Assembly (NCBI GenBank): GCA_016933575.1
Contig: JAFGAR010000081.1
Span: 201,020-265,019 of the forward strand
Direction of reading: 5' to 3'
DNA length: 64,000 nucleotides
Origin: Candidatus Thorarchaeota archaeon
Lineage (GTDB): Archaea; Asgardarchaeota; Thorarchaeia; Thorarchaeales; Thorarchaeaceae
Positions 2,713-64,000 of this stretch are shown piece after piece. The translations under genes and the position numbers were made by a program. Within the stretch, counting starts at the first letter, position 1, and every line of letters starts with the position of its first letter. The notes under the pieces were generated by a model. That model did no database searches. It was given only the letters and a program-made list of their open reading frames with translations, and was not told where the DNA came from.

Positions 2713-3654
2713 GTGATTATAGTGTCCAAAGAAAAGCAGAATGAAAACAATAGTGATACAGCATCCGAAGATGTGTGGGAGAAATGGCGTCGAGCAGGAG
2801 TAGTCGCCCGTGAAGCTCTTGCATTGGCACGACCGATGATTGAACCTGGTGTGAAAGTAATTGATATCATCGATACTGTAGAGAACTATATTCGTGAGAA
2901 TTCCTCGGGAACCTCATTTCCATGCAATGTATCGCTGAACAACATTGCAGCACACTATACCTCTCCCCTTAATGATGAAACAGTGATTGAGGCGGGCGAT
3001 CTTGTGACTGTTGACTGTGGCTCGCATGTTGACGGATGTATCGCTGACACTGCATTCACCATAGCTTTGAATCCTGACCATGAAGCTCTTGTCAAGGCAT
3101 CTGTAGATGCTACAAACGTAGCTATCAAGATGATGAGACCTGGTGCGAAACTCAATACTATTGGCGCCCTCATTGAAGACACTATCACTAGTGCAGGATT
3201 CAGGCCTATCAAACAATTGACTGGACACCAACTCAAGGAGTATGAGCTACACGCAGAAAAACAGGTTCCATGTGTATCTGGTAAATCAGAGGTTCTTGTA
3301 GAAGAGGGCGAGGTCTATGCTGTTGAGACCTTTGCTAGTACTGGTTCAGGGAATATCACTGACCTACCAAATCCAACTATCTATCAACTTCTTCCAATGC
3401 GCGTACCTTTGCGATTCAGCGGCTCCAAGCAGTTTGCAGGAATTGCTAGGAAGGAGTATCGTGAATTTCCATTTGCAGAGCGATGGCTTGCACAGCGTAT
3501 GAAGCATGCCACCCTAAAGATGGCTATCAGAGAGCTCCAACAGAATGGGGCACTCTTTGGTCACAAGATTCTTGCAGAGGAGAAGGGTGAGTTTGTGTCT
3601 CAACATGAGCATACAATAATCATCACAAAGGATGGTTATGAACAGACGACATGA
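2713..3654 (+). CDS. map: Methionine aminopeptidase type II
   Basis: FPCNVSLNNIAAHY, DCGSHVDGCIADTA, TGH, AVETF, SQHEHT. Confidence 0.95.
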   Translation: MIIVSKEKQNENNSDTASEDVWEKWRRAGVVAREALALARPMIEPGVKVIDIIDTVENYIRENSSGTSFPCNVSLNNIAAHYTSPLNDETVIEAGDLVTVDCGSHVDGCIADTAFTIALNPDHEALVKASVDATNVAIKMMRPGAKLNTIGALIEDTITSAGFRPIKQLTGHQLKEYELHAEKQVPCVSGKSEVLVEEGEVYAVETFASTGSGNITDLPNPTIYQLLPMRVPLRFSGSKQFAGIARKEYREFPFAERWLAQRMKHATLKMAIRELQQNGALFGHKILAEEKGEFVSQHEHTIIITKDGYEQTT

Positions 3655-3833
3655 GGTGCAGTATTTCGACACCCCCGACGATTCTCCGGTTCTTTCTTCG
3701 GTCAACACAGAAGTGTTAAAAGTCTATAATCTAAGTTATTCTATTGTGGGTCCCGGGAAACTGTCATCGGTGCTTTGACTTCTCTATGAATACTGGCGGT
3801 TACTAACCGGTTCCAACACTTGGAGGAGAGAGA

Positions 3834-4811
3834 TTGGACCGCATCCGTAGTACTGATGATAAGAAGGGAGCTGCCGAATCTTCCATTGAACTAATTTGTT
3901 GCCCAGAGTGTAAGTCTACTACCGTAGTTGAGGATACCACTCGAGGTGAACGAGTGTGCGGCGGTTGTGGTCTTGTACTATCCGACCATCGTATTGATAC
4001 CGGAGCCGAATGGCGTGCATTCAGTACTGAAGAGAGTGACTCTCGAAGTAGAGTTGGAGCACCACTTCGCTATACCGTGCATGATAAGGGACTCTCAACA
4101 GTTATTGACTGGAGAGATCGGGACACCTCTGGGAAGAAGTTGAGTCCGACACGAAGGTCGGAGATCTATCGATTGCGTAAATGGCAGATACGGTCTAGAG
4201 TACATTCGAGCATGGATCGTAATCTTGCACAGGCTATGTCCGAACTCGAACGATTGTCCTCACAGCTTGGAATCCCTGAACCAATTCGTGAGCTTGCAGC
4301 ACTTCTCTACAGAAAATCTATCATCAAGAAACTAGTCCGTGGACGAAGTATTGAAGCTATGGTGGCAGCAACGCTCTATGCTGCATGCAGGATACGGGAA
4401 AAACCCCGTCCTCTTGACGAGGTTGCTGATGCTTCGCGTATCGATAGAAAGAAATTGGGACAGTGTTATCGACTTCTTCTAAGAAATCTAGCAATCAAGA
4501 TCCCACTCTCTAATCCAGTCGCTTACATCTCCCGTTTTGCATCACAACTCGAACTCTCGAGCCCTGTGCAGCTCCGGACCGTTGAGATTTTGCAAAGAAG
4601 TCGCGATATTGGTCTCACAATAGGTCGTGACCCGCTTGGTCTTGCAGCGGCAGCAATTTACGTCGCCTCTATCATGTTAGATGAACGCCGGACACAACGA
4701 GAGATTGCTGAGGTCGCAAGGGTCACTGAAGTCACAGTACGCAATCGCTACAAAGAGATCGTAAAGAAGCTCAGTATTGATTCCATGGGTCTTGAACCTA
4801 TAGAACACTGA
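3834..4811 (+). CDS. tfb: Transcription initiation factor IIB (paralog 1)
   Basis: CPEC/CGGCG Zn ribbon, GAEWRAF, two cyclin repeats, VTEVTVRNRYKE. Confidence 0.95.
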   Translation: MDRIRSTDDKKGAAESSIELICCPECKSTTVVEDTTRGERVCGGCGLVLSDHRIDTGAEWRAFSTEESDSRSRVGAPLRYTVHDKGLSTVIDWRDRDTSGKKLSPTRRSEIYRLRKWQIRSRVHSSMDRNLAQAMSELERLSSQLGIPEPIRELAALLYRKSIIKKLVRGRSIEAMVAATLYAACRIREKPRPLDEVADASRIDRKKLGQCYRLLLRNLAIKIPLSNPVAYISRFASQLELSSPVQLRTVEILQRSRDIGLTIGRDPLGLAAAAIYVASIMLDERRTQREIAEVARVTEVTVRNRYKEIVKKLSIDSMGLEPIEH

Positions 4812-8376: not shown

Positions 8377-9969
8377 ATGATGTCCGACTCTGTACTCATC
8401 ATCGATGCATTAAGCGCTGGGTCTGGGAAACGAACCAGTTCTAGGGATTCTATCGGTTGTGGACCCAGAAGCGTAGCAGGGATTTTTGAGAAGCATGGAT
8501 TTGACTGCAGAATCTATAGGGCTGAAGAGATTCTTGAGAAAAAGAGTATAATGAGAAAGTTCGATCACATTGCTATCAGCTCTATGACCATGGACATGCC
8601 AGCTACTAGGAAGATCATGAACCTGTGGCGGAGCGGGGCTCGACATTCTGGTAGAGCTATTATTGGAGGTCCTATCGCTTCAGATTCTCGGGTGATTATA
8701 AAATTAGGTGCAGATCTCCTCGTTATTGGTGAAGGTGAGGCTACACTCGAGGAGTTGATTGAGCGGGACTATTTCCATGAGAAGATCGAGTTGTTGGACG
8801 TTCTTGGAATTGCTTTTGCAATCAATGGAAGAGTAGCATATACAAGGCCTCGTGAATTCATATCATCAGAATCTCTCTCATCTGATTTTCTACCATCCAC
8901 CACACGAATACTTGACTACAAGGCGTATCAAGCAAGTAAGGTCTATGTGGAGGTAACTCGGGGTTGCTCCAATTTTAGAAGGACTCGACTTCCCCTGTTA
9001 AATGGAAGTCAATGTTCTGAATGTGGAAATTGCGATGCTGACGAACCCGAAACACGTTTAGATTGCCCAGAAGATATTCCGCCTGGTTGTGGATTCTGTA
9101 GCGTTCCCGGAACGTGGGGCCCTCCAAGAAGCAGGTCTGCAGTGAGTATTGTGAGAGAGATCAAAGAACTTCTGGACTTAGGGGTCCATAAAATTGTCCT
9201 CGAGTCTCCTGGTTTCCTAGACTACTTCCGTGGATCCGAACCCCTCACAGATCCCTGTCATCCACCAGCTAATCTGTCTGCTATCAAGGATTTACTAGGG
9301 CAGATCAATAATCTGCCTCAAGTGATTGATGGAACTGCTCACATTACCATTGAGAACATGAAAGCGTGCCTGTTTACTGATGAGGTTGCACAGATGTTAG
9401 TTGAGTCAATGATGTCGAGTTCTCCAAATATTGGTCTTGAGACCGGTTCTGAAAAGCACATGCATCAGATCGGTAAATGTGGAAATCCGCAGGATGTCCT
9501 TTCTGCTGTGAAAATTGCGAGTAAGTATGGAATGAAACCCTTTGTGTATTTCATCTATGGTCTCCCTGGAGAGGATGAAGACAGTGTGAACGATTCTATT
9601 ACCATGATGCGGCAAATCAGTGAGGCTGGAGCTGAGAGAATAATTCTGTATGGCTTTAGATCCTTGCCTGGGTCTGCCTTTGAGAACTACCCCTCCTCCT
9701 CAACCAGTAATCCACTTGGGGCTATACTCAGGAGGGAAGCTGATAGAATCAATCGAGTGAAGAAGGATGACTACATCGGAAAGATTGTTCGTGGTATTGC
9801 AGCTGAACAATCCTGGGTCAATAGAGGATACACCATGGTCTATCCCTTGGAAGAAGGTCCCCTCATGACAGTGCCTGGCGGCTTTTCTGCAGGAACACTC
9901 CTGAACATTCGAATAACCAAGGTTCTTAGTAGCGGCCTCCTTGAGGGAGTGGCCCTTCAATCATCCTAA
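8377..9969 (+). CDS. B12-binding radical SAM protein with probable C-terminal TRAM domain
   Basis: IIGGP, GEGE, VEVTRGC...GCGFC, IGLETGS, FIYGLPGE. Confidence 0.85.
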   Translation: MMSDSVLIIDALSAGSGKRTSSRDSIGCGPRSVAGIFEKHGFDCRIYRAEEILEKKSIMRKFDHIAISSMTMDMPATRKIMNLWRSGARHSGRAIIGGPIASDSRVIIKLGADLLVIGEGEATLEELIERDYFHEKIELLDVLGIAFAINGRVAYTRPREFISSESLSSDFLPSTTRILDYKAYQASKVYVEVTRGCSNFRRTRLPLLNGSQCSECGNCDADEPETRLDCPEDIPPGCGFCSVPGTWGPPRSRSAVSIVREIKELLDLGVHKIVLESPGFLDYFRGSEPLTDPCHPPANLSAIKDLLGQINNLPQVIDGTAHITIENMKACLFTDEVAQMLVESMMSSSPNIGLETGSEKHMHQIGKCGNPQDVLSAVKIASKYGMKPFVYFIYGLPGEDEDSVNDSITMMRQISEAGAERIILYGFRSLPGSAFENYPSSSTSNPLGAILRREADRINRVKKDDYIGKIVRGIAAEQSWVNRGYTMVYPLEEGPLMTVPGGFSAGTLLNIRITKVLSSGLLEGVALQSS

Positions 9970-55199: not shown

Positions 55200-56551
55200 T
55201 CCAGTGTCTTTGTATATTCTAATTCTGCATTTTGGACGATATGTCTTGAAACCTCGCGAATGCTATTATAGTATTCTTCAATATTGACCTTGTCCATGTC
55301 AAGGATTTCCTTCAGCTCCGAGTCTGAGCGGACTGCATCAAAGAGTCCGGTCTTCTTCTCCTTTGCGTACACGCTGAATGACCTGAGCTTCTCATGCGCC
55401 TTTGGTCTTTCAAGACCAGCCTTCGTGAGCAGTGTGACAATGTACTCGCTGAAAATTGAATCGCCTGCAAGGCTGAGGTTCTTCTCTATTGCTGAGGTAT
55501 CAATCTCCAGTCCGTCAATCACACGGGTCAGTTCCCTCACAAGATAGTCTGTGAGGATGAATGCCTGGGGGATGACAAATCTCTCGGTGGAGGAGTGTGA
55601 TATGTCCCGTTCTTCCCAGCTCACTACGTTCTCAAGGGCTGGTGCTGCCAGAGCCCTCACTAGTCGTGCAAGACCTGAAATCTTTTCACAGGTCACAGGA
55701 TTTCTCTTATGGGGCATGGCTGATGAGCCTACCTGTTTTCCTCTAGCAAAGGGTTCGAAGGTCTCAGCAATCTCAGTTCTCTGAAGATTTCTCAGGTCTG
55801 TGGCAATCTTATCGATACTAGCTGAGAGATTAGCAAGAGCTGAGACCGCTTCCGCAATGCGGTCACGTTGGATGATCTGGGTTGTGGCAATCGGAACCTG
55901 TAAGCCTAGGTTCTCGAGGACCTTTTTCTGCATCTCAAGACCCTGCAATCCAAGCGCAGCATGACTACCAGTTGCTCCTGAGATCTTTCCAACCATTGTT
56001 GATAATTTTGCATTTCTTATACGTCTCTTGTGGCGGATCATCTCATCCAGCCAGACTGAGAATCTAATACCGTAGGTTATTGGTACCGCGTGCTGGCCAT
56101 GGGACCTCCCTACTGCAATCAGGTCCTTTGTTTCATGAGCCTTCATGAGAAGGGCTTCACATAGGATATCGATCTGAGGCAAGAGAACTTCAAAGGCCTC
56201 TTTCAATTGCAGTCCAAGAGCTGTGTCCTTGATGTCATTACTTGTCAGACCAAAATGGACCCATCGCGCTCCGGGACCCGAGCACTTCTCAGCAATCGCC
56301 TCGAAGAGTGCCGTAACATCATGTCTTGTCTTACTCTCAATCTCCATTGTCCGTTCAAGAGTGACAATGTCCGGTCGCGCAGTCTTCTTGATATCCTTTG
56401 CAGCCTCTTTAGGGATCATTGCTAGGTCTGATTGTGCCTCCGCTACCGCGGCCTCTATCTCAAGCCATAGTGCATGCCGCTTTTCCTCTTCAAAGATAGT
56501 GACCATATCTTGATGGCCATAACGTCCATAATCAATTGGGCTGACAGGCAT
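55196..56551 (-). CDS. purB: Adenylosuccinate lyase
   Basis: RHDV, HFGLTSND, GRSHGQHA, GSSAMPHKRNP. Confidence 0.95.
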   Translation of the reverse strand: MPVSPIDYGRYGHQDMVTIFEEEKRHALWLEIEAAVAEAQSDLAMIPKEAAKDIKKTARPDIVTLERTMEIESKTRHDVTALFEAIAEKCSGPGARWVHFGLTSNDIKDTALGLQLKEAFEVLLPQIDILCEALLMKAHETKDLIAVGRSHGQHAVPITYGIRFSVWLDEMIRHKRRIRNAKLSTMVGKISGATGSHAALGLQGLEMQKKVLENLGLQVPIATTQIIQRDRIAEAVSALANLSASIDKIATDLRNLQRTEIAETFEPFARGKQVGSSAMPHKRNPVTCEKISGLARLVRALAAPALENVVSWEERDISHSSTERFVIPQAFILTDYLVRELTRVIDGLEIDTSAIEKNLSLAGDSIFSEYIVTLLTKAGLERPKAHEKLRSFSVYAKEKKTGLFDAVRSDSELKEILDMDKVNIEEYYNSIREVSRHIVQNAELEYTKTLE

Positions 56552-56638
56552 GATACTTCCTTCTTACTTCTTCTTGAATTCTCATCCTTGATATGGTTTA
56601 CCTTCTATCCCGTACTGTACTATGAAACAGTTATCTGC

Positions 56639-57622
56639 ATGTTACGGCTTGTCATTCCTATGGACCACAAGACTGCCTCTGAGATTCTTCGTATTGCCTC
56701 AGAGATTGAATCCAATGGTTTTGCTGATGTTGCTAGAGGTATCACTGAATCAAAGGTTCTAGGACTGCTATTTCATGGTGCTACTCTCCGTGATAGTTCT
56801 ATCTGTAATCTTGCTGCTGCTAGATTGAATATGCAATCAGTCGACCTCAGTTGGAGCGATGTTGATTTTGCAGATTCCAACACCCTACTTGAGGAATTGA
56901 AGATGGCAAGTGATGCAGTAGACTTGCTTGTCACTATTTTTTCCGGTCATGAAACATTTGGCGAAGGAAGAAGGCTCACAACGAAGTTTCCAGATTATTC
57001 ATCGGTACCGGTCATTAGCCTCCGTGATGACATCTACGACTGGCAATCTGCTCTCTCTCACATCCGTGGATTCCAGAGAGAATTGGGGGATATTCAGGGG
57101 AAGCAGATTGTGATCAACTGGGCCTTCGGATCCACATTTGCAAGTCCTTCTATAGCCCATGGTCTGTTGGCGTTGAGTGCGCTCCTTGGAGCCAATGTCA
57201 GGGTGGTTGCACCACCTGAGTTCTCCCTTCTAAACCGCGTCCGACGGAAGGCAAAAGAGATTGCTAGTGAAACCGGTTCTACCTACGCAGAGGCCTCTCA
57301 ATTCGATGATGCCTTCAAGGATGCTGACGCGGTCTTTTCTCTGAACTGGTTTCGACTTGATGATTTCAACCATCCTGAGAGAAATCCACAGTATGCTAGC
57401 AAGTACAAGGACTGGTACATGACTCAGGAGATCATTCCTGAGCACTGCGTCTTCTCAACTGAGCCTACTATGCAGACAGATCTAACGCTTGATTCCTCTC
57501 TCCTTGGAGATTCACGGAATATCACAAGGTCTTGGCTAGTACGGCGTGTACGTGTTCTTGCTGCAGGAACTCTTCATACGCTTCGTAAAAACGGAAATGT
57601 AACTGATTCTTCCATTGTATAG
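56639..57622 (+). CDS. YgeW/ornithine carbamoyltransferase-fold protein lacking catalytic motifs
   Basis: GKQIVINWAF..SIAHG..LGANVRVVAPPEF, AFKDADAV; no STRT, HPxQ or HCLP. Confidence 0.7.
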   Translation: MLRLVIPMDHKTASEILRIASEIESNGFADVARGITESKVLGLLFHGATLRDSSICNLAAARLNMQSVDLSWSDVDFADSNTLLEELKMASDAVDLLVTIFSGHETFGEGRRLTTKFPDYSSVPVISLRDDIYDWQSALSHIRGFQRELGDIQGKQIVINWAFGSTFASPSIAHGLLALSALLGANVRVVAPPEFSLLNRVRRKAKEIASETGSTYAEASQFDDAFKDADAVFSLNWFRLDDFNHPERNPQYASKYKDWYMTQEIIPEHCVFSTEPTMQTDLTLDSSLLGDSRNITRSWLVRRVRVLAAGTLHTLRKNGNVTDSSIV

Positions 57623-57826
57623 TATCAATAATATGATAGGATGTCAAAGCGTATTCAATTAACTTCTCACTCAACTTCAAGCATATGTTTCTTGCTTTCT
57701 CCATTTTTTTTCAATTAGTAGCAACCTACGCAGCTGATAATACTGCTAGTTCATCGGAAAGTACCTCATCTACTTGTGGTAAGTTCAGCACGATGAAAAA
57801 TATCATAATACCTCATCATATTCTGT

Positions 57827-58237
57827 CTATTCTGTTCCAGTGGATTCATCCTCACTTTCGTCGTGGAGCGGATTCTCGATATTGATACCAAAGATTGAAC
57901 CTATCACAAAGCCAATGATTACAAAGGCTGGAAGTGCAATCCAGTACGATTCTAGTACCTCTAAGAAATATGAAGGTGTAAACAATAGTAAAACAGACCA
58001 TATTGTCACAATGACAAGACCAAAGTGCATCGCTGAAAACAGACCTTCCTTAACAGGACTATTGATATTATTTGCATACCATAATCCGCGTTCACCTTGC
58101 TTTATTGCTACGCTCTTCGACTGATTCGCTAGATTCAATCCCCACAGCTTATACCGAAACACGGCTAACCAGACGATAACCGCCATCAGAATGGCTACAG
58201 TCAAATAGCCAACCTCAACAGTACCTGATTGCATCAT
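57827..58237 (-). CDS. Small 3-TM membrane protein (candidate immunity-type gene)
   Basis: 136 aa, three hydrophobic segments. Confidence 0.7.
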   Translation of the reverse strand: MMQSGTVEVGYLTVAILMAVIVWLAVFRYKLWGLNLANQSKSVAIKQGERGLWYANNINSPVKEGLFSAMHFGLVIVTIWSVLLLFTPSYFLEVLESYWIALPAFVIIGFVIGSIFGINIENPLHDESEDESTGTE

Positions 58238-58269
58238 AATTCCACACTCTTTGCTTTAATCAATAAAAA

Positions 58270-58311
58270 GACAGCAGCTTTATAGGTTTGTATGACCCTA
58301 AAACTGCTGTC
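58270..58311 (-). terminator. Inter-cassette hairpin followed by a T-run
   Basis: GACAGCAGTTTTAGG-N10-CCTATAAAGCTGCTGTC then TTTT on the minus strand. Confidence 0.4.
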
Positions 58312-58344
58312 ATGATGTTCCTGCTTAGAAAATCGCATCTATTA

Positions 58345-58665
58345 TCATAATATCTCTCTAGTTCCTATGAAGGCAATAACTAATAGAAGTAATAGACAAC
58401 TCAGAGAGTTTGATACCACTTCTCCAAAAACAGTTGGGATCAACGCTAATGAAGTGAGCCAGAGGAAGAAGAAAGGAAACGAAAATACAAAAAGACTGAA
58501 TAAGCTATACTTGATTTGCTCGTTCAGCTTTCTTGCAAGGGTATGGAAAAAATTCACTCTTTCTAATTCAGAAATACGAAGCTGATTCCTCGCGCCTGCT
58601 ACCTTTAGCCAGATATAAAATAATGTGACACTCATAAGAGAGTCTATAATGATTAATTGCAGCAA
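58345..58665 (-). CDS. Small 3-TM membrane protein (candidate immunity-type gene)
   Basis: 106 aa, hydrophobic, GAGGGA upstream. Confidence 0.6.
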   Translation of the reverse strand: MLQLIIIDSLMSVTLFYIWLKVAGARNQLRISELERVNFFHTLARKLNEQIKYSLFSLFVFSFPFFFLWLTSLALIPTVFGEVVSNSLSCLLLLLVIAFIGTREIL

Positions 58666-58709
58666 GGCAAATCCCTCAGCTTCGATTAGTCAACAATAGA
58701 ACTACATTT

Positions 58710-59087
58710 CTAACTATCATTTCTCTTTTTTAGTATATAGGCAAACAATGCTATCAATATACTTGCAACTACTCCAAGTTCTATGATTATTGTAAAATTG
58801 GTTGGATCAATCACAAGAGATACCATACAACCAGCTAGTCCGAACAAGTCTGATAGAACTATGACTCTCGTATATGACACAAGAATTGAGTTCCAAAACC
58901 ATGGGAAATTTCTCATTGCTTCAACGAATCCGTATGACAGAAGGATTGTGAATAATGCTAGACACCACCCCAAGATAAAACTGAACATGTTCCAGCTCAA
59001 GGAGAGGGAGAATAAGTTCGAAATGGTTAATCCAGTTATGAGAATAGCATATATTCCAGCTAGTCTGTAACTACTTTTTTCCCCCAT
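58710..59087 (-). CDS. Small 4-TM membrane protein (candidate immunity-type gene)
   Basis: 125 aa, AGGAGG upstream. Confidence 0.7.
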   Translation of the reverse strand: MGEKSSYRLAGIYAILITGLTISNLFSLSLSWNMFSFILGWCLALFTILLSYGFVEAMRNFPWFWNSILVSYTRVIVLSDLFGLAGCMVSLVIDPTNFTIIIELGVVASILIALFAYILKKRNDS

Positions 59088-59149
59088 AGAATGCTACGAA
59101 CCTCCTTGGTCCATTTACGTATTTATTTTAGTAATACTACGAAAATGAA

Positions 59150-59452
59150 CTAACAGTACACCCATAAAAAGTACTGGATTACTATAGAACGAACAGTCCA
59201 TATTGTCCAAGTCTTCCATTTTTTCAGTGCAGCAGCGGTATTGAGCACTAACACGATAAACTCATTCATCTGGACTATCGTCATTTCGTTATCGAGTGCC
59301 GTATCACCTGTACTGTCTTCGAATCCTAAATTAAAGAAGAGATCGAAAGACATATGCAAGTCTGCAATCCCTCCAGCTAATGTGATAACTGACCGGAGTA
59401 TATGAACACGAAGCCACAACCCGACCCGGCACAAGATAATTTTGATTTTCAA
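59150..59452 (-). pseudogene. Truncated cassette fragment homologous to 61649-62458
   Basis: Ungapped 52-aa alignment with 15 identities (LWxRxH, LHxSxD, DTxLD, T, Q). Confidence 0.7.
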
Positions 59453-59496
59453 GTACCTCTCGTGTCCTCTTGCCTAGTACTTTTTGAGGGAAATAG

Positions 59497-59874
59497 TCAT
59501 GGTGAGTTGGAAATCTTGCATCTCACCCACCTTTCTATGAACAGACGTAATGGCACAATAGAGATGTATATGACTATCATGAATAGGATTAGAAACGTTA
59601 CGTAGCTTGAGATGGGTTCTTGCAGAATTGTGGGCCAGAGGATGAGTCCAATGAAGCAGGTGAATATTGGTATCATAAATACTACTGACTGGATTAAGCC
59701 ACCGTACTTACCTTGTACGAATCGACTAGCCCAAGTCTCGTACTTCGATTCGGGTCTGACTGCAACTCCCATTATCTGCAATGTGCGACGAAGCCTTATC
59801 CCCTGAAATAGCAGAGTAGGTAAGATGAATATTATAATGACAACGATATAAACAAGAAATAGTACAATTTCCAC
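59497..59874 (-). CDS. Small 3-TM membrane protein (candidate immunity-type gene)
   Basis: 125 aa, GGTGA RBS before GTG. Confidence 0.7.
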   Translation of the reverse strand: MEIVLFLVYIVVIIIFILPTLLFQGIRLRRTLQIMGVAVRPESKYETWASRFVQGKYGGLIQSVVFMIPIFTCFIGLILWPTILQEPISSYVTFLILFMIVIYISIVPLRLFIERWVRCKISNSP

Positions 59875-60030
59875 TATTCACCATCTCCTACAAAGAGTTA
59901 GATAAGGCAATGGGAATCCAATAATTGAAGAACAACAACCACGGGTCACCATGCATCAAGTTTATACCTCCAGTACTACAGCAGGTAAGACCCTCTTTGA
60001 ATCCACGCCTGCCATCTAGTCCTTTTGTTA

Positions 60031-60435
60031 TTAGGTCATCGAAGAGTTATTACCTGATAATGAGTCCTTTGAAAATAGCCCATTTTCCAATATATTATGC
60101 CTTATTTGATGTATCTTCCAGATGAACAAGGCTAGCAGAATCCACATAATAATTGTTCCTCCAATTGTAGTGTATGGAGGCGCATATCCTGTCAACACCT
60201 CAAAGATAAATGTCAGAAGATATGCGCTCCAAAAATAACTGACAACGAAAGATGGTATCAAAGACATAACGTCAAATATGTAATCGATCCTTGTTTGATG
60301 GCTTCCATATGTCTTCACATTATTTGTGGATGCTCCAATCCATCGAAATGTCAACCCTCCAATGAACGCAGGAATGCAAACTATAAGGATCCCAGTAAAG
60401 GTCAGAAGAACAATTCCTACTATCATGTCTATCAT
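60031..60435 (-). CDS. Small 3-TM membrane protein (candidate immunity-type gene)
   Basis: ATG 1 nt after the stop of the upstream cassette fragment. Confidence 0.7.
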   Translation of the reverse strand: MIDMIVGIVLLTFTGILIVCIPAFIGGLTFRWIGASTNNVKTYGSHQTRIDYIFDVMSLIPSFVVSYFWSAYLLTFIFEVLTGYAPPYTTIGGTIIMWILLALFIWKIHQIRHNILENGLFSKDSLSGNNSSMT

Positions 60436-60436
60436 T

Positions 60437-61066
60437 TTAGAAATCTCCCGTCCTGTATGCCAAAGCAAATGTCAGCAGCAATAGACCAGTCACGATTAGC
60501 ACAAGTCTAACTGCAAGTGAACCTATTGTTAATGCCTCTGCAACTTTCCAAATAAAGAATGTTGCTGGAGGATATAGTAGACTTATTATTGTTGCAGGAA
60601 TTGCTGCCAAGTACCCACCAAAAGCTGATATCAGACAACCAGCTCCGCAAACAAGACAGACCCAAGCTGCCCAACCTAGCCCCTTTAAACCTGACATAAG
60701 CCAAAGGTCAATGTTTATTCTCAGTGATACTATTGCAGCGACCCATAATCCGACTGCAACTGCTCCCACACCGCTAATAAATCCCAGTCCAGCTGTCGCC
60801 TCAATAAATTTAATCGTTAGAAGACAAAGGGTCATGAATGTTGAGAACGCGATGAATGGAGCCAATTCTTCTATTGCTTCTTCCCAAAATTCTTGTTCAT
60901 CATCTTCTTGTCACGACGAAGCTGGAGTAAATTCTAAAACCGTTGTTCTGTCAAGTAGATCACGTTTTGCATGGAAATAGATGTCTTCCATTTGTTCACC
61001 CTGTTCTGGATGCGCACGTCCAGCAGGAGGTGCTGGAATTGACGGGGTTTGAAGAGAGGCACTTGA
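60437..61066 (-). pseudogene. Cassette fragment with hydrophobic tip, interrupted by an in-frame TGA at 60911-60913
   Basis: Reads GRAH..YFHAKRDLL..*QEDDEQEFWEE..VAVGLWVAA..G..AAW, paralleling PRLH..LHFSVDIL..DDQIWE..VAILLWCAA..G..CAW in 61649-62458. Confidence 0.65.
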
Positions 61067-61648
61067 TTATGAATCTCTCTGTATATTGATTTTGTTTGAT
61101 AGTACATCCTGAGCCACGGAGCCGACCCAGTCGCTTCTTTTTGCTATTATTTGAATCGCTTCCTGATAGTATTCATACCCAGTATCTTCAACTTTCATGT
61201 GGTACATTAGAAGAAACCGCTTCAAGCTCTCTGAAGAACGATTCCATGTCCGTGCTCTGAAGATCCAAATGCTTGCTAATCGATTAGAGTAGGGCGGAAA
61301 CACCCATTGAAAAGATGGATGCCGGTACAATCCAGCAACAAGGACTCCATACGCGAGGATGATGAACATCCATTCTCCCATGGATATCAACAAATATGAG
61401 GATGTCACTTCTGATGTGATGCCGACTCCCAAACCAAGACGAAATCCGCTTAGATAACTCTTCGCGGTCCAGAAGACTATCGAAACAAGTAGAACATAGA
61501 GAATCAACGTTCGCTTGATTCCACCAAAGAACAAAACTCCTGTTCTTTGAATCAAGTACGGCCCTCGTTTCCAAGTAGAACTATAGTTCAGTATGGGCAG
61601 CACTACAACTGTGATGCACCCAAACACCGTCCAGAAAATCACATCCAT
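61067..61648 (-). CDS. 3-TM membrane protein with soluble C-terminal tail (candidate immunity-type gene)
   Basis: ATG directly abuts the TAG of the upstream ORF. Confidence 0.75.
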   Translation of the reverse strand: MDVIFWTVFGCITVVVLPILNYSSTWKRGPYLIQRTGVLFFGGIKRTLILYVLLVSIVFWTAKSYLSGFRLGLGVGITSEVTSSYLLISMGEWMFIILAYGVLVAGLYRHPSFQWVFPPYSNRLASIWIFRARTWNRSSESLKRFLLMYHMKVEDTGYEYYQEAIQIIAKRSDWVGSVAQDVLSNKINIQRDS

Positions 61649-62458
61649 CTATGCAGCCCCCACGTCTCTCATTGCTTGTTCATAGAAGATTCCATACATA
61701 TGTAAAGTTACTATCGCCACGGATATTTTTAAGGCTATCAGAAAGATAGCCCAATACCCCTTTAGACCATTGTTATCAAACAGCGATGGGAAATCTTCAT
61801 AGGTCTTTCCAAGCCAAGCAGCACCAGCCCAGAAACCAGCGAACAAAACAACATCGAAAAGAAAAGCTTCTTGGAAATTCGCCATCCAAGCACAGGCCTG
61901 TATTGCGGACAGAAATCCTTGGTTAACGTACTCAAGCATCCACCAAATCCATATACCGAACGCAGCGCACCATAAAAGAATCGCCACCGAAAAAGCAGTC
62001 TGTGTGCCAGGTACTAGCAATAGGGCCGCCAGTATATCTATTGCCGCAAGGGAATATCCAAGATATCGGCCAAAAGCAGCAAACCAACCGCCGCGAGCTT
62101 CCCAAATTTGGTCATCTACTGAGGCTTGAAGAGCTTCCAGCTGCTGTGTTGTAAGATCATCATCAAGTGTCGTATCATAGAGTATCTCTTCAACTCTCAC
62201 AGATCCTAAAATATCAACAGAAAAATGCAAAAGTAGAGAGCTTGTCGATGACGGTGCCGCAGTATAATACGCATGAAGTCGTGGCCAGAGTTGCTCCCAC
62301 CAATACAATGCATTTGCTGCCAGTGATAGAAGGTAGTTCGTTTGGGTTTTAGATTCTGGACTTTCTGGGTCATCTCCATCGTACGTCCCGTCCGCCACCT
62401 CCGGCTCAGGGACCAGGGTCTCCTGGTCAGCGTAGAGGTTGACCGCATGGAGACGCAT
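61649..62458 (-). CDS. Probable orphan C-terminal module: acidic linker, conserved motif, 4-helix hydrophobic tip
   Basis: 269-aa ORF; the frame continues upstream through stops in a GC-richer stretch. Confidence 0.65.
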   Translation of the reverse strand: MRLHAVNLYADQETLVPEPEVADGTYDGDDPESPESKTQTNYLLSLAANALYWWEQLWPRLHAYYTAAPSSTSSLLLHFSVDILGSVRVEEILYDTTLDDDLTTQQLEALQASVDDQIWEARGGWFAAFGRYLGYSLAAIDILAALLLVPGTQTAFSVAILLWCAAFGIWIWWMLEYVNQGFLSAIQACAWMANFQEAFLFDVVLFAGFWAGAAWLGKTYEDFPSLFDNNGLKGYWAIFLIALKISVAIVTLHMYGIFYEQAMRDVGAA

Positions 62459-62698
62459 CTGGTTAAGCGCATAGGTCCTCGGAGAGTTGAACGATAGTTA
62501 CCCCTGCACCGCTATTAGCGTTATCAGCTGTCCACGCAGTTACTGCGACAAGCTGCAGTGAAAGTTTCTCGGATGAGGCGGTGGGGGTCGGTCACTGGGC
62601 CAAGTATCAGTTACTTAAATTGAAAGAGCACATTACTTGGTTTCATCAAAGAATGAAGTTATGAAAATCTTTTCCATTAATGTTGTATCTTTGTTCCA

Positions 62699-63052
62699 TC
62701 ACTCATTACCATCAGCATAAGAATCACGAATCTGCTTTAAAAGAGGTTCTAGCTCAGGTATGTCTTCCTTTATCACGAGCCACACAGCTTCATAGTCAAC
62801 AGTAAAATAACTATGGATTATCTTATCTCTCATCCCTGCCATCGCACGCCATGGAATCGAAGGATAACGAGCACGCACCTCTTCCGGTATTTGTTTGGTT
62901 GCCTCTCCAATGACTTCAAGACATCGAATTGCTGCATCACTGGTCTTTTGATCGGTTGAGAATTCACTGAACGACAGCCCCTCAATATAGGTAGTAGCTC
63001 GTCCCATATATTCAATGATGTCATCAACATAAATCCGGATGGCCCTTTTCAC
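62699..63052 (-). CDS. HEPN/DUF86 ribonuclease toxin (HepT-like)
   Basis: LEVIGEA, IPWRAMAGMRDKIIHSY (RX4HXY). Confidence 0.92.
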   Translation of the reverse strand: MKRAIRIYVDDIIEYMGRATTYIEGLSFSEFSTDQKTSDAAIRCLEVIGEATKQIPEEVRARYPSIPWRAMAGMRDKIIHSYFTVDYEAVWLVIKEDIPELEPLLKQIRDSYADGNE

Positions 63053-63351
63053 AGAGGAATTGCCTCCCCTAATATGGCACGCCGTAGCTCCTGCCGTATA
63101 CTCCTTCTTAGGATGACATCCACTTGGACGCCCAAGAGATCGGTCAGATGATTCTCAAGGGAAATAATGTGAAGCAGACTGACTGGACTGGAAAACTCCA
63201 CTAGAAGATCCACATCACTCTCTTCTCTCTGTTGGCCTCTCACATATGAACCAAAGATAGCAATGCTCTTGACTTTGAATTGCTGTTCAAGTTCATCCCT
63301 ATATTGCTTGAGAATGGCCTTGACCTCATCTGCAGTCTGCAATAGAATCAC
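63049..63351 (-). CDS. Minimal nucleotidyltransferase antitoxin (MntA-like)
   Basis: IFGSYVRG..SDVDLLVEF; 4-nt overlap with the HEPN gene. Confidence 0.92.
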   Translation of the reverse strand: MILLQTADEVKAILKQYRDELEQQFKVKSIAIFGSYVRGQQREESDVDLLVEFSSPVSLLHIISLENHLTDLLGVQVDVILRRSIRQELRRAILGEAIPL

Positions 63352-63488
63352 CAGTGTCTAACATGAGTTCTTGTTCATATATCATTTACCAATAGCTCAA
63401 GGATAAGCCATTCGTTTCGTAATGGGGACTATCCTGCTAGACATCTATTCACAGGACACTGGTGCGGATGGCTCTAAATGAAGTGAGT

Positions 63489-63620
63489 TCATCTTCTACT
63501 GGCAATAGCTACGCACTTCAGGACACTCAGCATTCTCCCCTTTGTACGAACGATCAAAAATCCAAGCTTCTGTAGCACTTTAACCAGCTGTTGACCTTCG
63601 ATAACAGAAAGTCGTGACAT
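63489..63620 (-). pseudogene. hicA: Truncated HicA toxin
   Basis: MSRLSVIEGQQLVKVLQKLGFLIVRTKG then diverges exactly where GSH is expected; stops after 43 aa. Confidence 0.75.
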
Positions 63621-63670
63621 GTTTGTACCACCTGAAAGTAATATAAAAAAGAGAGCCACTAGAAAGGTCT

Positions 63671-63889
63671 CTACGGAATAATGATCTCTATCTCTCGGAA
63701 TCCAATGAATTGATTCAAACTAGCCACCTCTTCCCCTTCAAGGCACATATCGATGACTTCTCTCAGATTTTCCAGAGCCTCATCGATAGTTTCCCCATAT
63801 GAGTGGCATCCTTTGAACACGGGGCAACTCACGATATAGACCCCGTCCTCGTCGATCTCCACAAGAACAGGTAAGTTGAGTTTGCTCAT
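63671..63889 (-). CDS. hicB: HicB-like antitoxin
   Basis: DEDGVYIVSCP.FKGCHSYGETIDEALENLRE. Confidence 0.88.
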   Translation of the reverse strand: MSKLNLPVLVEIDEDGVYIVSCPVFKGCHSYGETIDEALENLREVIDMCLEGEEVASLNQFIGFREIEIIIP

Positions 63890-64000
63890 CCTCTACACTT
63901 CCACAAATCTATCCGCCATATCCAGATAAATTCCTTTGGAGATTTGACTTCATCTCTTCTGATATATCCATCATCATAAGAATGCTCTCCATCTTGAAAA

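Follow-up and report, generated by a model that had tools for sequence, protein, structure and literature searches.

The closest known kind of genetic system to the one described here is that of the bacterial polymorphic toxins with orphan arrays, namely CdiA-CT/CdiI, Rhs-CT/RhsI and MafB/MafI (PMC3482391). Archaea seldom have classical systems of this type and lack most of the associated immunity families; caspase-like domains are known in them as releasing peptidases (PMC3482391). The locus in question is an island of C-terminal tail fragments and small membrane-protein genes in a genome of 3.47 Mb in 215 contigs, which relatives of its housekeeping genes place in Thorarchaeota, an Asgard lineage. 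The window, i.e. the whole stretch of DNA that was analysed, is the final 64 kb of contig C57, and the island runs on its minus strand from 62604 down to 57827. We propose that this stretch may be the end of a polymorphic surface-protein system of Thorarchaeota at which spare parts are kept, and in this system exchangeable membrane tails would act as toxins and their small partners as immunity proteins; for this full statement we estimate a probability of roughly 0.45. A cassette-exchange architecture, taken by itself, is very highly probable. The genetic design itself was observed and consists of a constant carrier, a D-G/A-T boundary, a tail of ~180 aa with ~4 transmembrane (TM) segments that is swapped together with its neighbour gene, and spare cassettes.

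The island resembles bacterial polymorphic toxin loci in that a large exported constant region ends at a short boundary motif, behind which the entire C-terminus and the next gene are exchanged as one. Further common features are arrays of 5′-truncated spares that lie downstream and keep a homology box, and partner genes that outlast decayed tips; a caspase-like domain in the carrier may be another. The parts are different, however. No CdiB, FHA, YD/Rhs or LXG parts, no dedicated secretion system and no match to any of the toxin or immunity families of these systems were found. Every Thorarchaeota tail is of one hydrophobic 4-TM kind instead of many unrelated enzymes, and it is predicted to lie in the membrane of the producer; the partner is an integral membrane protein and the host is an Asgard archaeon. 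In the case of contact-dependent inhibition (CDI), no CdiB or FHA Pfam domains were found in the full-length (parent) protein, the neighbourhoods of five parents lack such a transporter, and the motif is D-G/A-T instead of VENN. In the case of Rhs, the parent has no RHS or YD Pfam match and its repeats have the concanavalin A (ConA)-like lectin fold.

A membrane-acting C-terminal domain with a small integral membrane protein encoded directly downstream is also found in pore-forming colicins (A, E1, Ia) and in CdiA-CT(EC93), and specificity in this comparison is presumed to lie in helix-helix contacts. The immunity proteins of pore-forming colicins are small, with 2-4 TM segments. Before insertion, colicin pore domains form water-soluble bundles of helices; the Thorarchaeota tails, in contrast, are plain TM helices. 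No tail gave a Pfam match to the colicin pore domain, a sequence match in PDB, or any sequence or profile similarity to it, and the tail model has a predicted local distance difference test score (pLDDT) of ~50. IdsD/IdsE of Proteus mirabilis is a polymorphic protein with a cognate small membrane protein, in which variable regions in or next to membrane segments set strain identity; IdsD is delivered by a type VI secretion system. The present locus differs in that no type VI system, no homology to this pair and no truncated-spare array of IdsD/IdsE style were seen.

Among archaeal systems, the nearest analogue is VARTIG of Thermococcales (Makarova et al. 2021, PMC8416519), a system of unknown function which its authors compare with polymorphic toxins and for which they report no counterpart outside Thermococcales. 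Both are lineage-specific archaeal islands with a large secreted multi-domain protein and a hypervariable C-terminus made by recombination, and in both variable small, mostly membrane, proteins come next. In VARTIG the variable part is an extracellular immunoglobulin (Ig) domain of an arCOG07710-type protein, whereas here it is a 4-TM tail. The carriers also differ (Ig against ConA-like lectin plus caspase-like head), and no relationship was seen between their sequences. Pfam gave no Ig domains for the Thorarchaeota system, and its junction family occurs in one Asgard family only. The parts that define the CDI, Rhs, colicin and VARTIG families were looked for without success, so the locus belongs to none of these families. 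A literature search, which did not cover the archaeal survey (mBio 2019), found no paper tying Thorarchaeota to polymorphic toxins.

A constant carrier with exchangeable tails

A first-pass annotation of this DNA had supposed that the fragments in the window are spare ends for a long secreted parent protein encoded elsewhere. Such a parent was indeed found on contig C56 of the same genome. This protein, P0006 (1294 aa), has an N-terminal signal peptide, a long ectodomain, the same junction as the window (MRLHAIQFSATQETLVP..DGT) and four C-terminal hydrophobic helices, and a 122-aa TM gene begins 1 nt after it. A further 31 parents were identified, all from Thorarchaeota or Promethearchaeia metagenomes. 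"Elsewhere" proved to be half of the answer, as one parent was formerly encoded at this very locus (see below). The start of C56 (reverse strand; 1-232) shares exactly 87 bp with that of contig C38 (1-87), within a tail gene; the two are neighbours and represent one array of ~15 kb that was split by the assembler. A contig search with the lectin domain plus junction confirmed no relative, and the relatives came from a separate genome search.

Exchange of the tail is evident from comparison of the parents. Eight full-length parents are 45-87% identical over residues 40-1105 and 8-32% beyond residue 1135, in agreement with the variable ends proposed earlier for proteins carrying the module. In the case of P0012 and P0013, the identity is 87% before the junction and 18% after it. 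The DNA of their loci (L037 and L039) is 92-99% identical apart from one block of 1.5 vs 2.5 kb, which starts at about parent residue 1073 (ADAT/S), ends before the next housekeeping gene and contains the tail and the small genes behind it. Because the swapped block begins directly after the invariant D-A-T, D-G/A-T was assigned as the motif of the constant/variable boundary. In role it corresponds to VENN of CdiA or to PxxxxDPxGL.

The genome of the window (G000) has 13 junction copies in total, i.e. 12 besides that of A1, the first tail of the island, and a sole copy stands in a full-length gene. The module profile scores A1 at 98 bits (E 5e-32). Paralogues of the first 90 residues of A1 are confined to C38 and C56, and the homology reaches upstream past the A1 ATG to the stop at 62498. 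At the DNA level, four more junctions, located on C38 and C56, match that of A1 at 84-88% identity across 73-80 nt. Cassettes and parents thus have this homology box in common, and it is plausible that it serves for recombination. About 15 orphan-sized representatives (e.g. P0106, P0114, P0115, P0131, P0141) start, like A1, at a conserved Met before the junction R-L-H; this Met may be an internal start for spares, or merely the first ATG left open by truncation.

The small TM gene anticipated downstream of each tail was found without exception. All 23 complete tails from nine loci are followed, at -26 to +129 nt, by a small open reading frame (ORF) of 111-193 aa with 2-3 hydrophobic segments, and the types of tail and partner co-vary. 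Among 253 cassette pairs, which are not independent of one another, 8 were similar in both tail and partner, 7 in the tail only, 0 in the partner only and 238 in neither. Three orphan tails of this genome match the tails of full-length parents in other genomes, and their partners match as well; the tail identities are 77% (484-aa orphan on C38 with the parent in genome G001), 56% (494-aa orphan on C56 with P0013) and 51% (297-aa orphan on C38 with P0012). The spares of one genome are therefore the displayed tails of another.

A total of 201 proteins with the junction module were found among 1.84 billion representative proteins. The best 150 of these include 126 complete tails with a median length of 179 aa (140-199), four being the most common number of helices. 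In the same 150, the tails fall into at least 31 BLAST-level types and orphan-sized proteins are ~10 times as numerous as long parents. Common descent of all tail types was considered and not accepted, as the comparison of A1-type and P0007-type profiles was not significant (probability 0.3%) and only length and topology are common to them; one fold family is thus suggested by layout only. The tails had been described as Gly/Ala/Trp-rich. Relative to other TM segments of the genome, Ala and Trp are elevated and Gly is not. Evidently, long parents carry the module, and its homologues are not conserved stand-alone genes devoid of variable tails or TM partners.

The distribution of the system is narrow. 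Of 400 genomes sampled across the phylum, 31 gave matches to the junction profile; these all belong to the window's own family, where 30 of the 85 other genomes were positive (13 genera, up to 12 copies per genome). None of the 315 genomes of other families gave a match.

Structural models were employed to describe the carrier. The middle of the parent is composed of tandem ConA-like lectin domains. In the model of the last repeat plus tail (pLDDT 70-87 on the repeat, ~50 on the tail), a beta sandwich closed by the junction strand is followed by a small four-strand module (YWTGxWPxLH ... VDLLG) and then by four long helices. The sandwich matches ConA-like lectin folds, such as the phage Dit CBM2, calreticulin, galectins and alginate lyases (Foldseek E 1e-6 to 1e-5). 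For the head (residues 36-330, pLDDT 67), the top match among 48,161 chains was the CHAT protease of SAVED-CHAT (Z 10.4, 158 aligned residues), and further matches were legumain (Z 8.6) and metacaspase (Z 8.0). His105-Gly and Cys140 are each placed after a beta strand, and in 23 homologues the His is invariant and the Cys nearly so. The modelled head is probably a clan-CD (caspase-like) peptidase; the assignment is probable rather than proven because generic Rossmann-like folds also reach Z 8-9.

Other searches with the parent were less informative. A feature search of the ESM Atlas with the head gave weak leads only (best 0.80, CHAT 0.77), and comparison of the parent with PDB by sequence gave one chance-level match only. 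Pfam, NCBIfam and PADLOC returned no above-threshold family for the parent or for any cassette ORF of the window, A1, A2 and B1-B6 (see below) included. Other surface proteins of Thorarchaeota, up to ~2090 aa long (P0009, P0028, P0033-P0036), begin with the same caspase-like module (first ~470 residues). These proteins carry DUF2341 and other domains, and at least P0033 has the junction module near its C-terminus. From these architectures, it follows that the head module occurs with more than one kind of middle domain.

Cassettes of the window and their flanks

The island contains nine ORFs, all in one orientation as the first-pass annotation had stated. A1 is a complete tail, A2 a truncated one and A3 a doubtful remnant; the six others, B1-B6, are intact genes for small membrane proteins of 106-193 aa with 2-4 hydrophobic segments apiece. 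The two gene borders read as translational coupling are both present, with a 0-nt gap between the A1 stop and the B1 start (TAG/ATG, 61649/61648) and a 1-nt gap between the A2 stop and the B2 start (60437/60435). Other statements needed correction. The description as AT-rich holds for 58001-61000 (GC content 0.38-0.40 vs 0.42 for the genome) and fails for the A1/B1 part (0.44-0.46). The N-terminal module ascribed to three fragments is clear in A1, missing from A2 and weak in A3, and the supposed single fragment at 60437-61066 is open in frame over 60437-60910 only. The six B proteins are intact as described and are not all unrelated: B3 is of a partner type that also occurs elsewhere, and B6 is like an ORF of C38. 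DNA repeats within 57000-64000 are short chance matches only; the cassettes of the window are related to one another by protein or by the 80-nt junction only.

A1 (61649..62458, minus strand) is a complete tail ORF of 269 aa. It consists of the junction, an acidic linker, a W-rich YWW..LWPRLH / VDILG module, another acidic linker and 4 hydrophobic helices. The junction module (62385..62497, minus) comprises the last lectin beta strand (MRLHAVNLYA), the PEPE linker and the invariant D-G-T. The 5′ region of A1, which had been singled out for a DNA search against the genome, matches not only the junction copies of C38 and C56 but also the beginning of a parent gene. The region 62475..62564 (minus) is 77% identical over 91 nt to C56 9420-9510 (blastn). 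It encodes LSLQLVAVTAWTADNANSGAGVTIVQLSED, in which 24/30 residues are identical to residues 24-53 of P0006 (tblastn E 1.3e-7), i.e. the end of the signal peptide and the mature start. This relic is out of frame with A1 and is the sole copy in the genome besides the C56 parent.

Because parent residues 24-53 survive directly before A1, a full-length parent formerly began here. It still does in G001, the locus of which is syntenic with the window, with a 1319-aa parent at the head followed by tail/partner cassettes; purB and carbamoyltransferase-like genes are common to both, with 71-75% DNA identity as far as 57487. The alignments indicate that the resident parent lost ~980 codons, from residue 53 to the junction, and that A1 is the relic of this deletion. 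A possible scrap of the lectin-domain end, LGPVTDPHRLIR, lies in the third frame at 62569..62604 (minus). It matches positions 1-12 of the junction profile at an independent E-value (i-E) of 0.3, which is weak alone, and eight of its residues are the same as in P0020.

B1 (61067..61648, minus) encodes the cognate partner of the A1-type tail, a protein of 193 aa with 3 TM segments and a soluble C-terminal part. Relatives of A1 in other metagenomes are 70-93% identical and homologues of B1 61-95%; the mean column identity of A1-type tails is 79%. In four loci (L035, L043, L045, L046) an A1-type tail is followed by a B1 homologue at a 0-nt gap, and the point of 5′ truncation differs in each. The ratio of nonsynonymous to synonymous substitution rates (dN/dS) against the L035 copy is 0.08 for A1 and 0.26 for B1. 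The B1-type partners (B1, P0038, P0039) have an invariant stretch, SYLSGFRLGLGVGITSEV, and a second one, RHPxFxWVFPPYS. Such strict stretches are unusual in small membrane proteins and, to judge from this conservation, likely mark a contact or functional site. Co-folding of the A1 tail with B1 gave a score of 0.00 with an uncertain partner fold and counts neither way on binding.

A2 (60437..60910, minus) is a 5′-truncated tail with an acidic linker and hydrophobic helices, without a start codon and without the junction. It is regarded as a truncated tip because a homologous frame of 361 aa in G364, a genome of a different genus, joins the junction to an A2-type tail of 63% identity; a B2-like gene comes next. 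B2 (60031..60435, minus; 134 aa, 3-4 TM) is the intact partner of the A2-type tail. On C38, a 47-aa remnant of an A2-type tail (68% identity, dN/dS 0.92) stands ahead of an intact B2 copy (86% identity, dN/dS 0.42). B2-type genes stand alone in G001 and G015, and no junction module was found in the latter genome, which is 90% complete. In another locus (L057, G393:C236, 1939-3045, minus) a 369-aa ORF with about nine hydrophobic segments and without the junction module precedes a B2-like partner, and may be another kind of upstream gene for this partner type. A junction-like out-of-frame 13-mer within B2 (60153-60191; i-E 0.66) was taken as chance.

B3 (59497..59874, minus) is an intact orphan partner gene, the tail of which is absent at the locus. 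It is homologous to the partners of the 297-aa C38 tip and of parent P0012, with a dN/dS of 0.30 against the C38 copy, and in G354 a tip is followed by a B3-type gene. The suggestion that partner genes outlive decayed tips is borne out by B2, behind a truncated tail, and by B3, without any; B1-B3 are intact although A1 collapsed and A2 and A3 decayed further. A3 (59150..59473, minus) is a possible decayed tip remnant. Its LWLRVH...LHMSFDL weakly resembles the WPxLH...VDLLG module (i-E 0.8 in a 5-kb search), and it is 29% identical to A1 over 51 aa.

The last three ORFs are small TM proteins. B4 (58710..59087, minus; 125 aa, 4 TM) is without relatives, no match being found among 27 other genomes of the genus. 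B5 (58345..58665, minus; 106 aa, TTG start) has a partner-like order of a TM segment, a basic loop and a TM hairpin, and is weakly like B6 (25% over 91 aa; jackhmmer E 0.007). B6 (57827..58237, minus; 136 aa, 3 TM), the final gene of the island, resembles a 128-aa ORF of the C38 array at 3551-3937 (E 7e-7) and has no relative outside its own genome.

The flanks contain genes outside the cassette system. A toxin-antitoxin pair of HepT (HEPN RNase) and MNT at 62699..63351 (minus; Pfam PF01934 6e-31, PF01909 8e-18) sits between hicAB and the A1 relic. hicB and a truncated hicA are located at 63489..63889 (minus; Pfam PF15919 1e-9), and the same pair lies within the C38 array (8983-9491). hicB (63671-63889) is intact and almost the same as the C38 copy. 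hicA (63489-63659, minus) is shortened to 56 aa and divergent past ...VRTKG, and its C38 copy (9213-9491) has 92 aa. The other side of the island is bordered by a gene of 382 aa (56474-57622, plus), the product of which has the Asp/Orn-binding domain of aspartate/ornithine carbamoyltransferase (E 1e-9) and a carbamoyl-phosphate domain under the Pfam cut-off, as a divergent member of that family.

The contig end at 64000 does not overlap with any other contig end. In a second study of sediment (X2), one contig traverses hicB and passes 64000, and ~130 nt further on it has 44 nt like the junction at 62399-62442. Since this order mirrors that of C38 (junction fragment, hicB, hicA), the array probably extends upstream beyond the contig end. 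In two metatranscriptomes of the source study no contig matched the stretch, a result that weighs neither way.

Possible roles of tail and partner

The sequences make a role in conflict or recognition between cells probable. That this role is specifically one of toxin and immunity is a more tentative proposition, a little short of even odds. In the mechanism that we favour, the lectin domains would bind the surface of a neighbour and the tail would act in the membrane as a pore-forming or depolarising toxin. The partner, predicted as an integral membrane protein with basic cytoplasmic loops, would neutralise its cognate tail via helix-helix contact inside the membrane, like the immunity proteins of pore-forming colicins. 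The caspase-like head may cleave the exposed D-G/A-T linker, and recombination guided by the junction would change the tail that is displayed. Toxin/immunity is favoured because 0 tails lack a partner, partners persist tail-less under purifying selection (dN/dS 0.3-0.4 for B2 and B3 vs 0.92 for the tail remnant), and partner-only genomes exist.

Several observations weigh against toxin and immunity. Since the tail has four markedly hydrophobic helices and its parent a Sec signal, insertion into the membrane of the producer itself is to be expected. Genes for secretion or injection were not found in the neighbourhoods of five parents, and no delivery route is evident. The caspase-like domain is at the far N-terminus, whereas releasing peptidases usually adjoin the tail. 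The uniform length and topology of the tails, unlike the varied enzymatic toxins of bacteria, suits a recognition or structural role equally. The co-variation of tail and partner is partly predicted by plain linkage of neighbouring genes, and a glycine-zipper idea was abandoned as GxxxG is not enriched in the tails vs other TM segments. B4, B5 and B6 were included by position and topology alone and have no tail-following relatives.

The same uniformity speaks for kin or self recognition instead of killing, which we nevertheless regard as unlikely. Here the lectin protein would make cell contact, tail and partner would be an identity tag within or between membranes, and mismatched pairs would block cooperation, fusion or exchange, as with IdsD/IdsE in Proteus. 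A single tail architecture (median 179 aa, mode 4 TM) with at least 31 types looks like allelic diversification of one module, and only the membrane part varies, the exposed lectin domains being conserved. Tail and partner co-vary, and the hypotheses of the VARTIG authors include self/non-self discrimination (PMC8416519). Protection, however, accounts more easily than identity tagging for intact partners without tails and for partner-only genomes; transfer machinery is not known, and no sign was seen of tail and partner meeting in trans.

It is improbable that the system has no conflict role at all. In that case, the tail would simply anchor a surface lectin/protease in the membrane, with the small protein as a subunit for its assembly or stability, and the variation would come from relaxed constraint on lipid-facing helices together with recombination in a repeat-rich island. 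This would suit tails that are ordinary hydrophobic helices matching no toxin family, a parent predicted to remain in its own membrane, and islands that also contain toxin-antitoxin modules and decayed genes. But relaxed constraint does not give an abrupt fall from 87% to 18% at one motif, nor the replacement of a block between strains that are 92-99% identical. Tails of one and the same type show strong conservation (dN/dS 0.08; 79% mean column identity), and a plain anchor would have no use for stored 5′-truncated spares with a conserved homology box. An antiviral or stress suicide module, in which the ectodomain would sense a virus or foreign surface, the tail would open as a pore that the partner keeps shut, and an arms race with viral inhibitors would drive the polymorphism, is very improbable: the best structural match of the head is CHAT-like, CHAT proteases serve bacterial defence and the island adjoins toxin-antitoxin modules, but the protease domain is extracellular, behind a signal peptide, no PADLOC family was matched, known defence systems lack arrays of spare, truncated effector ends, and partner-only genes would be left without function.

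A further, doubtful possibility is that Thorarchaeota tell or fight kin through the membrane in a manner of their own, different from any described so far. The tail would be passed to, or read by, a touching neighbour, where the matching partner would disarm or recognise it, and transfer might proceed by membrane contact, vesicles or protrusions without a secretion machine.

The window shows a life history of such a system, with a parent gene lost by internal deletion, decaying tails and retained partner genes. In these Asgard archaea, unrelated parts reproduce the whole genetic logic of polymorphic toxin systems, with the swappable part embedded in the membrane. The at least 31 natural tail/partner types are available for studying specific helix-helix recognition in membranes. 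If kin are indeed told or fought through the membrane, the archaeal relatives of eukaryotes would have here their first known system of cell-cell conflict or recognition, built on lock-and-key pairs within the membrane.

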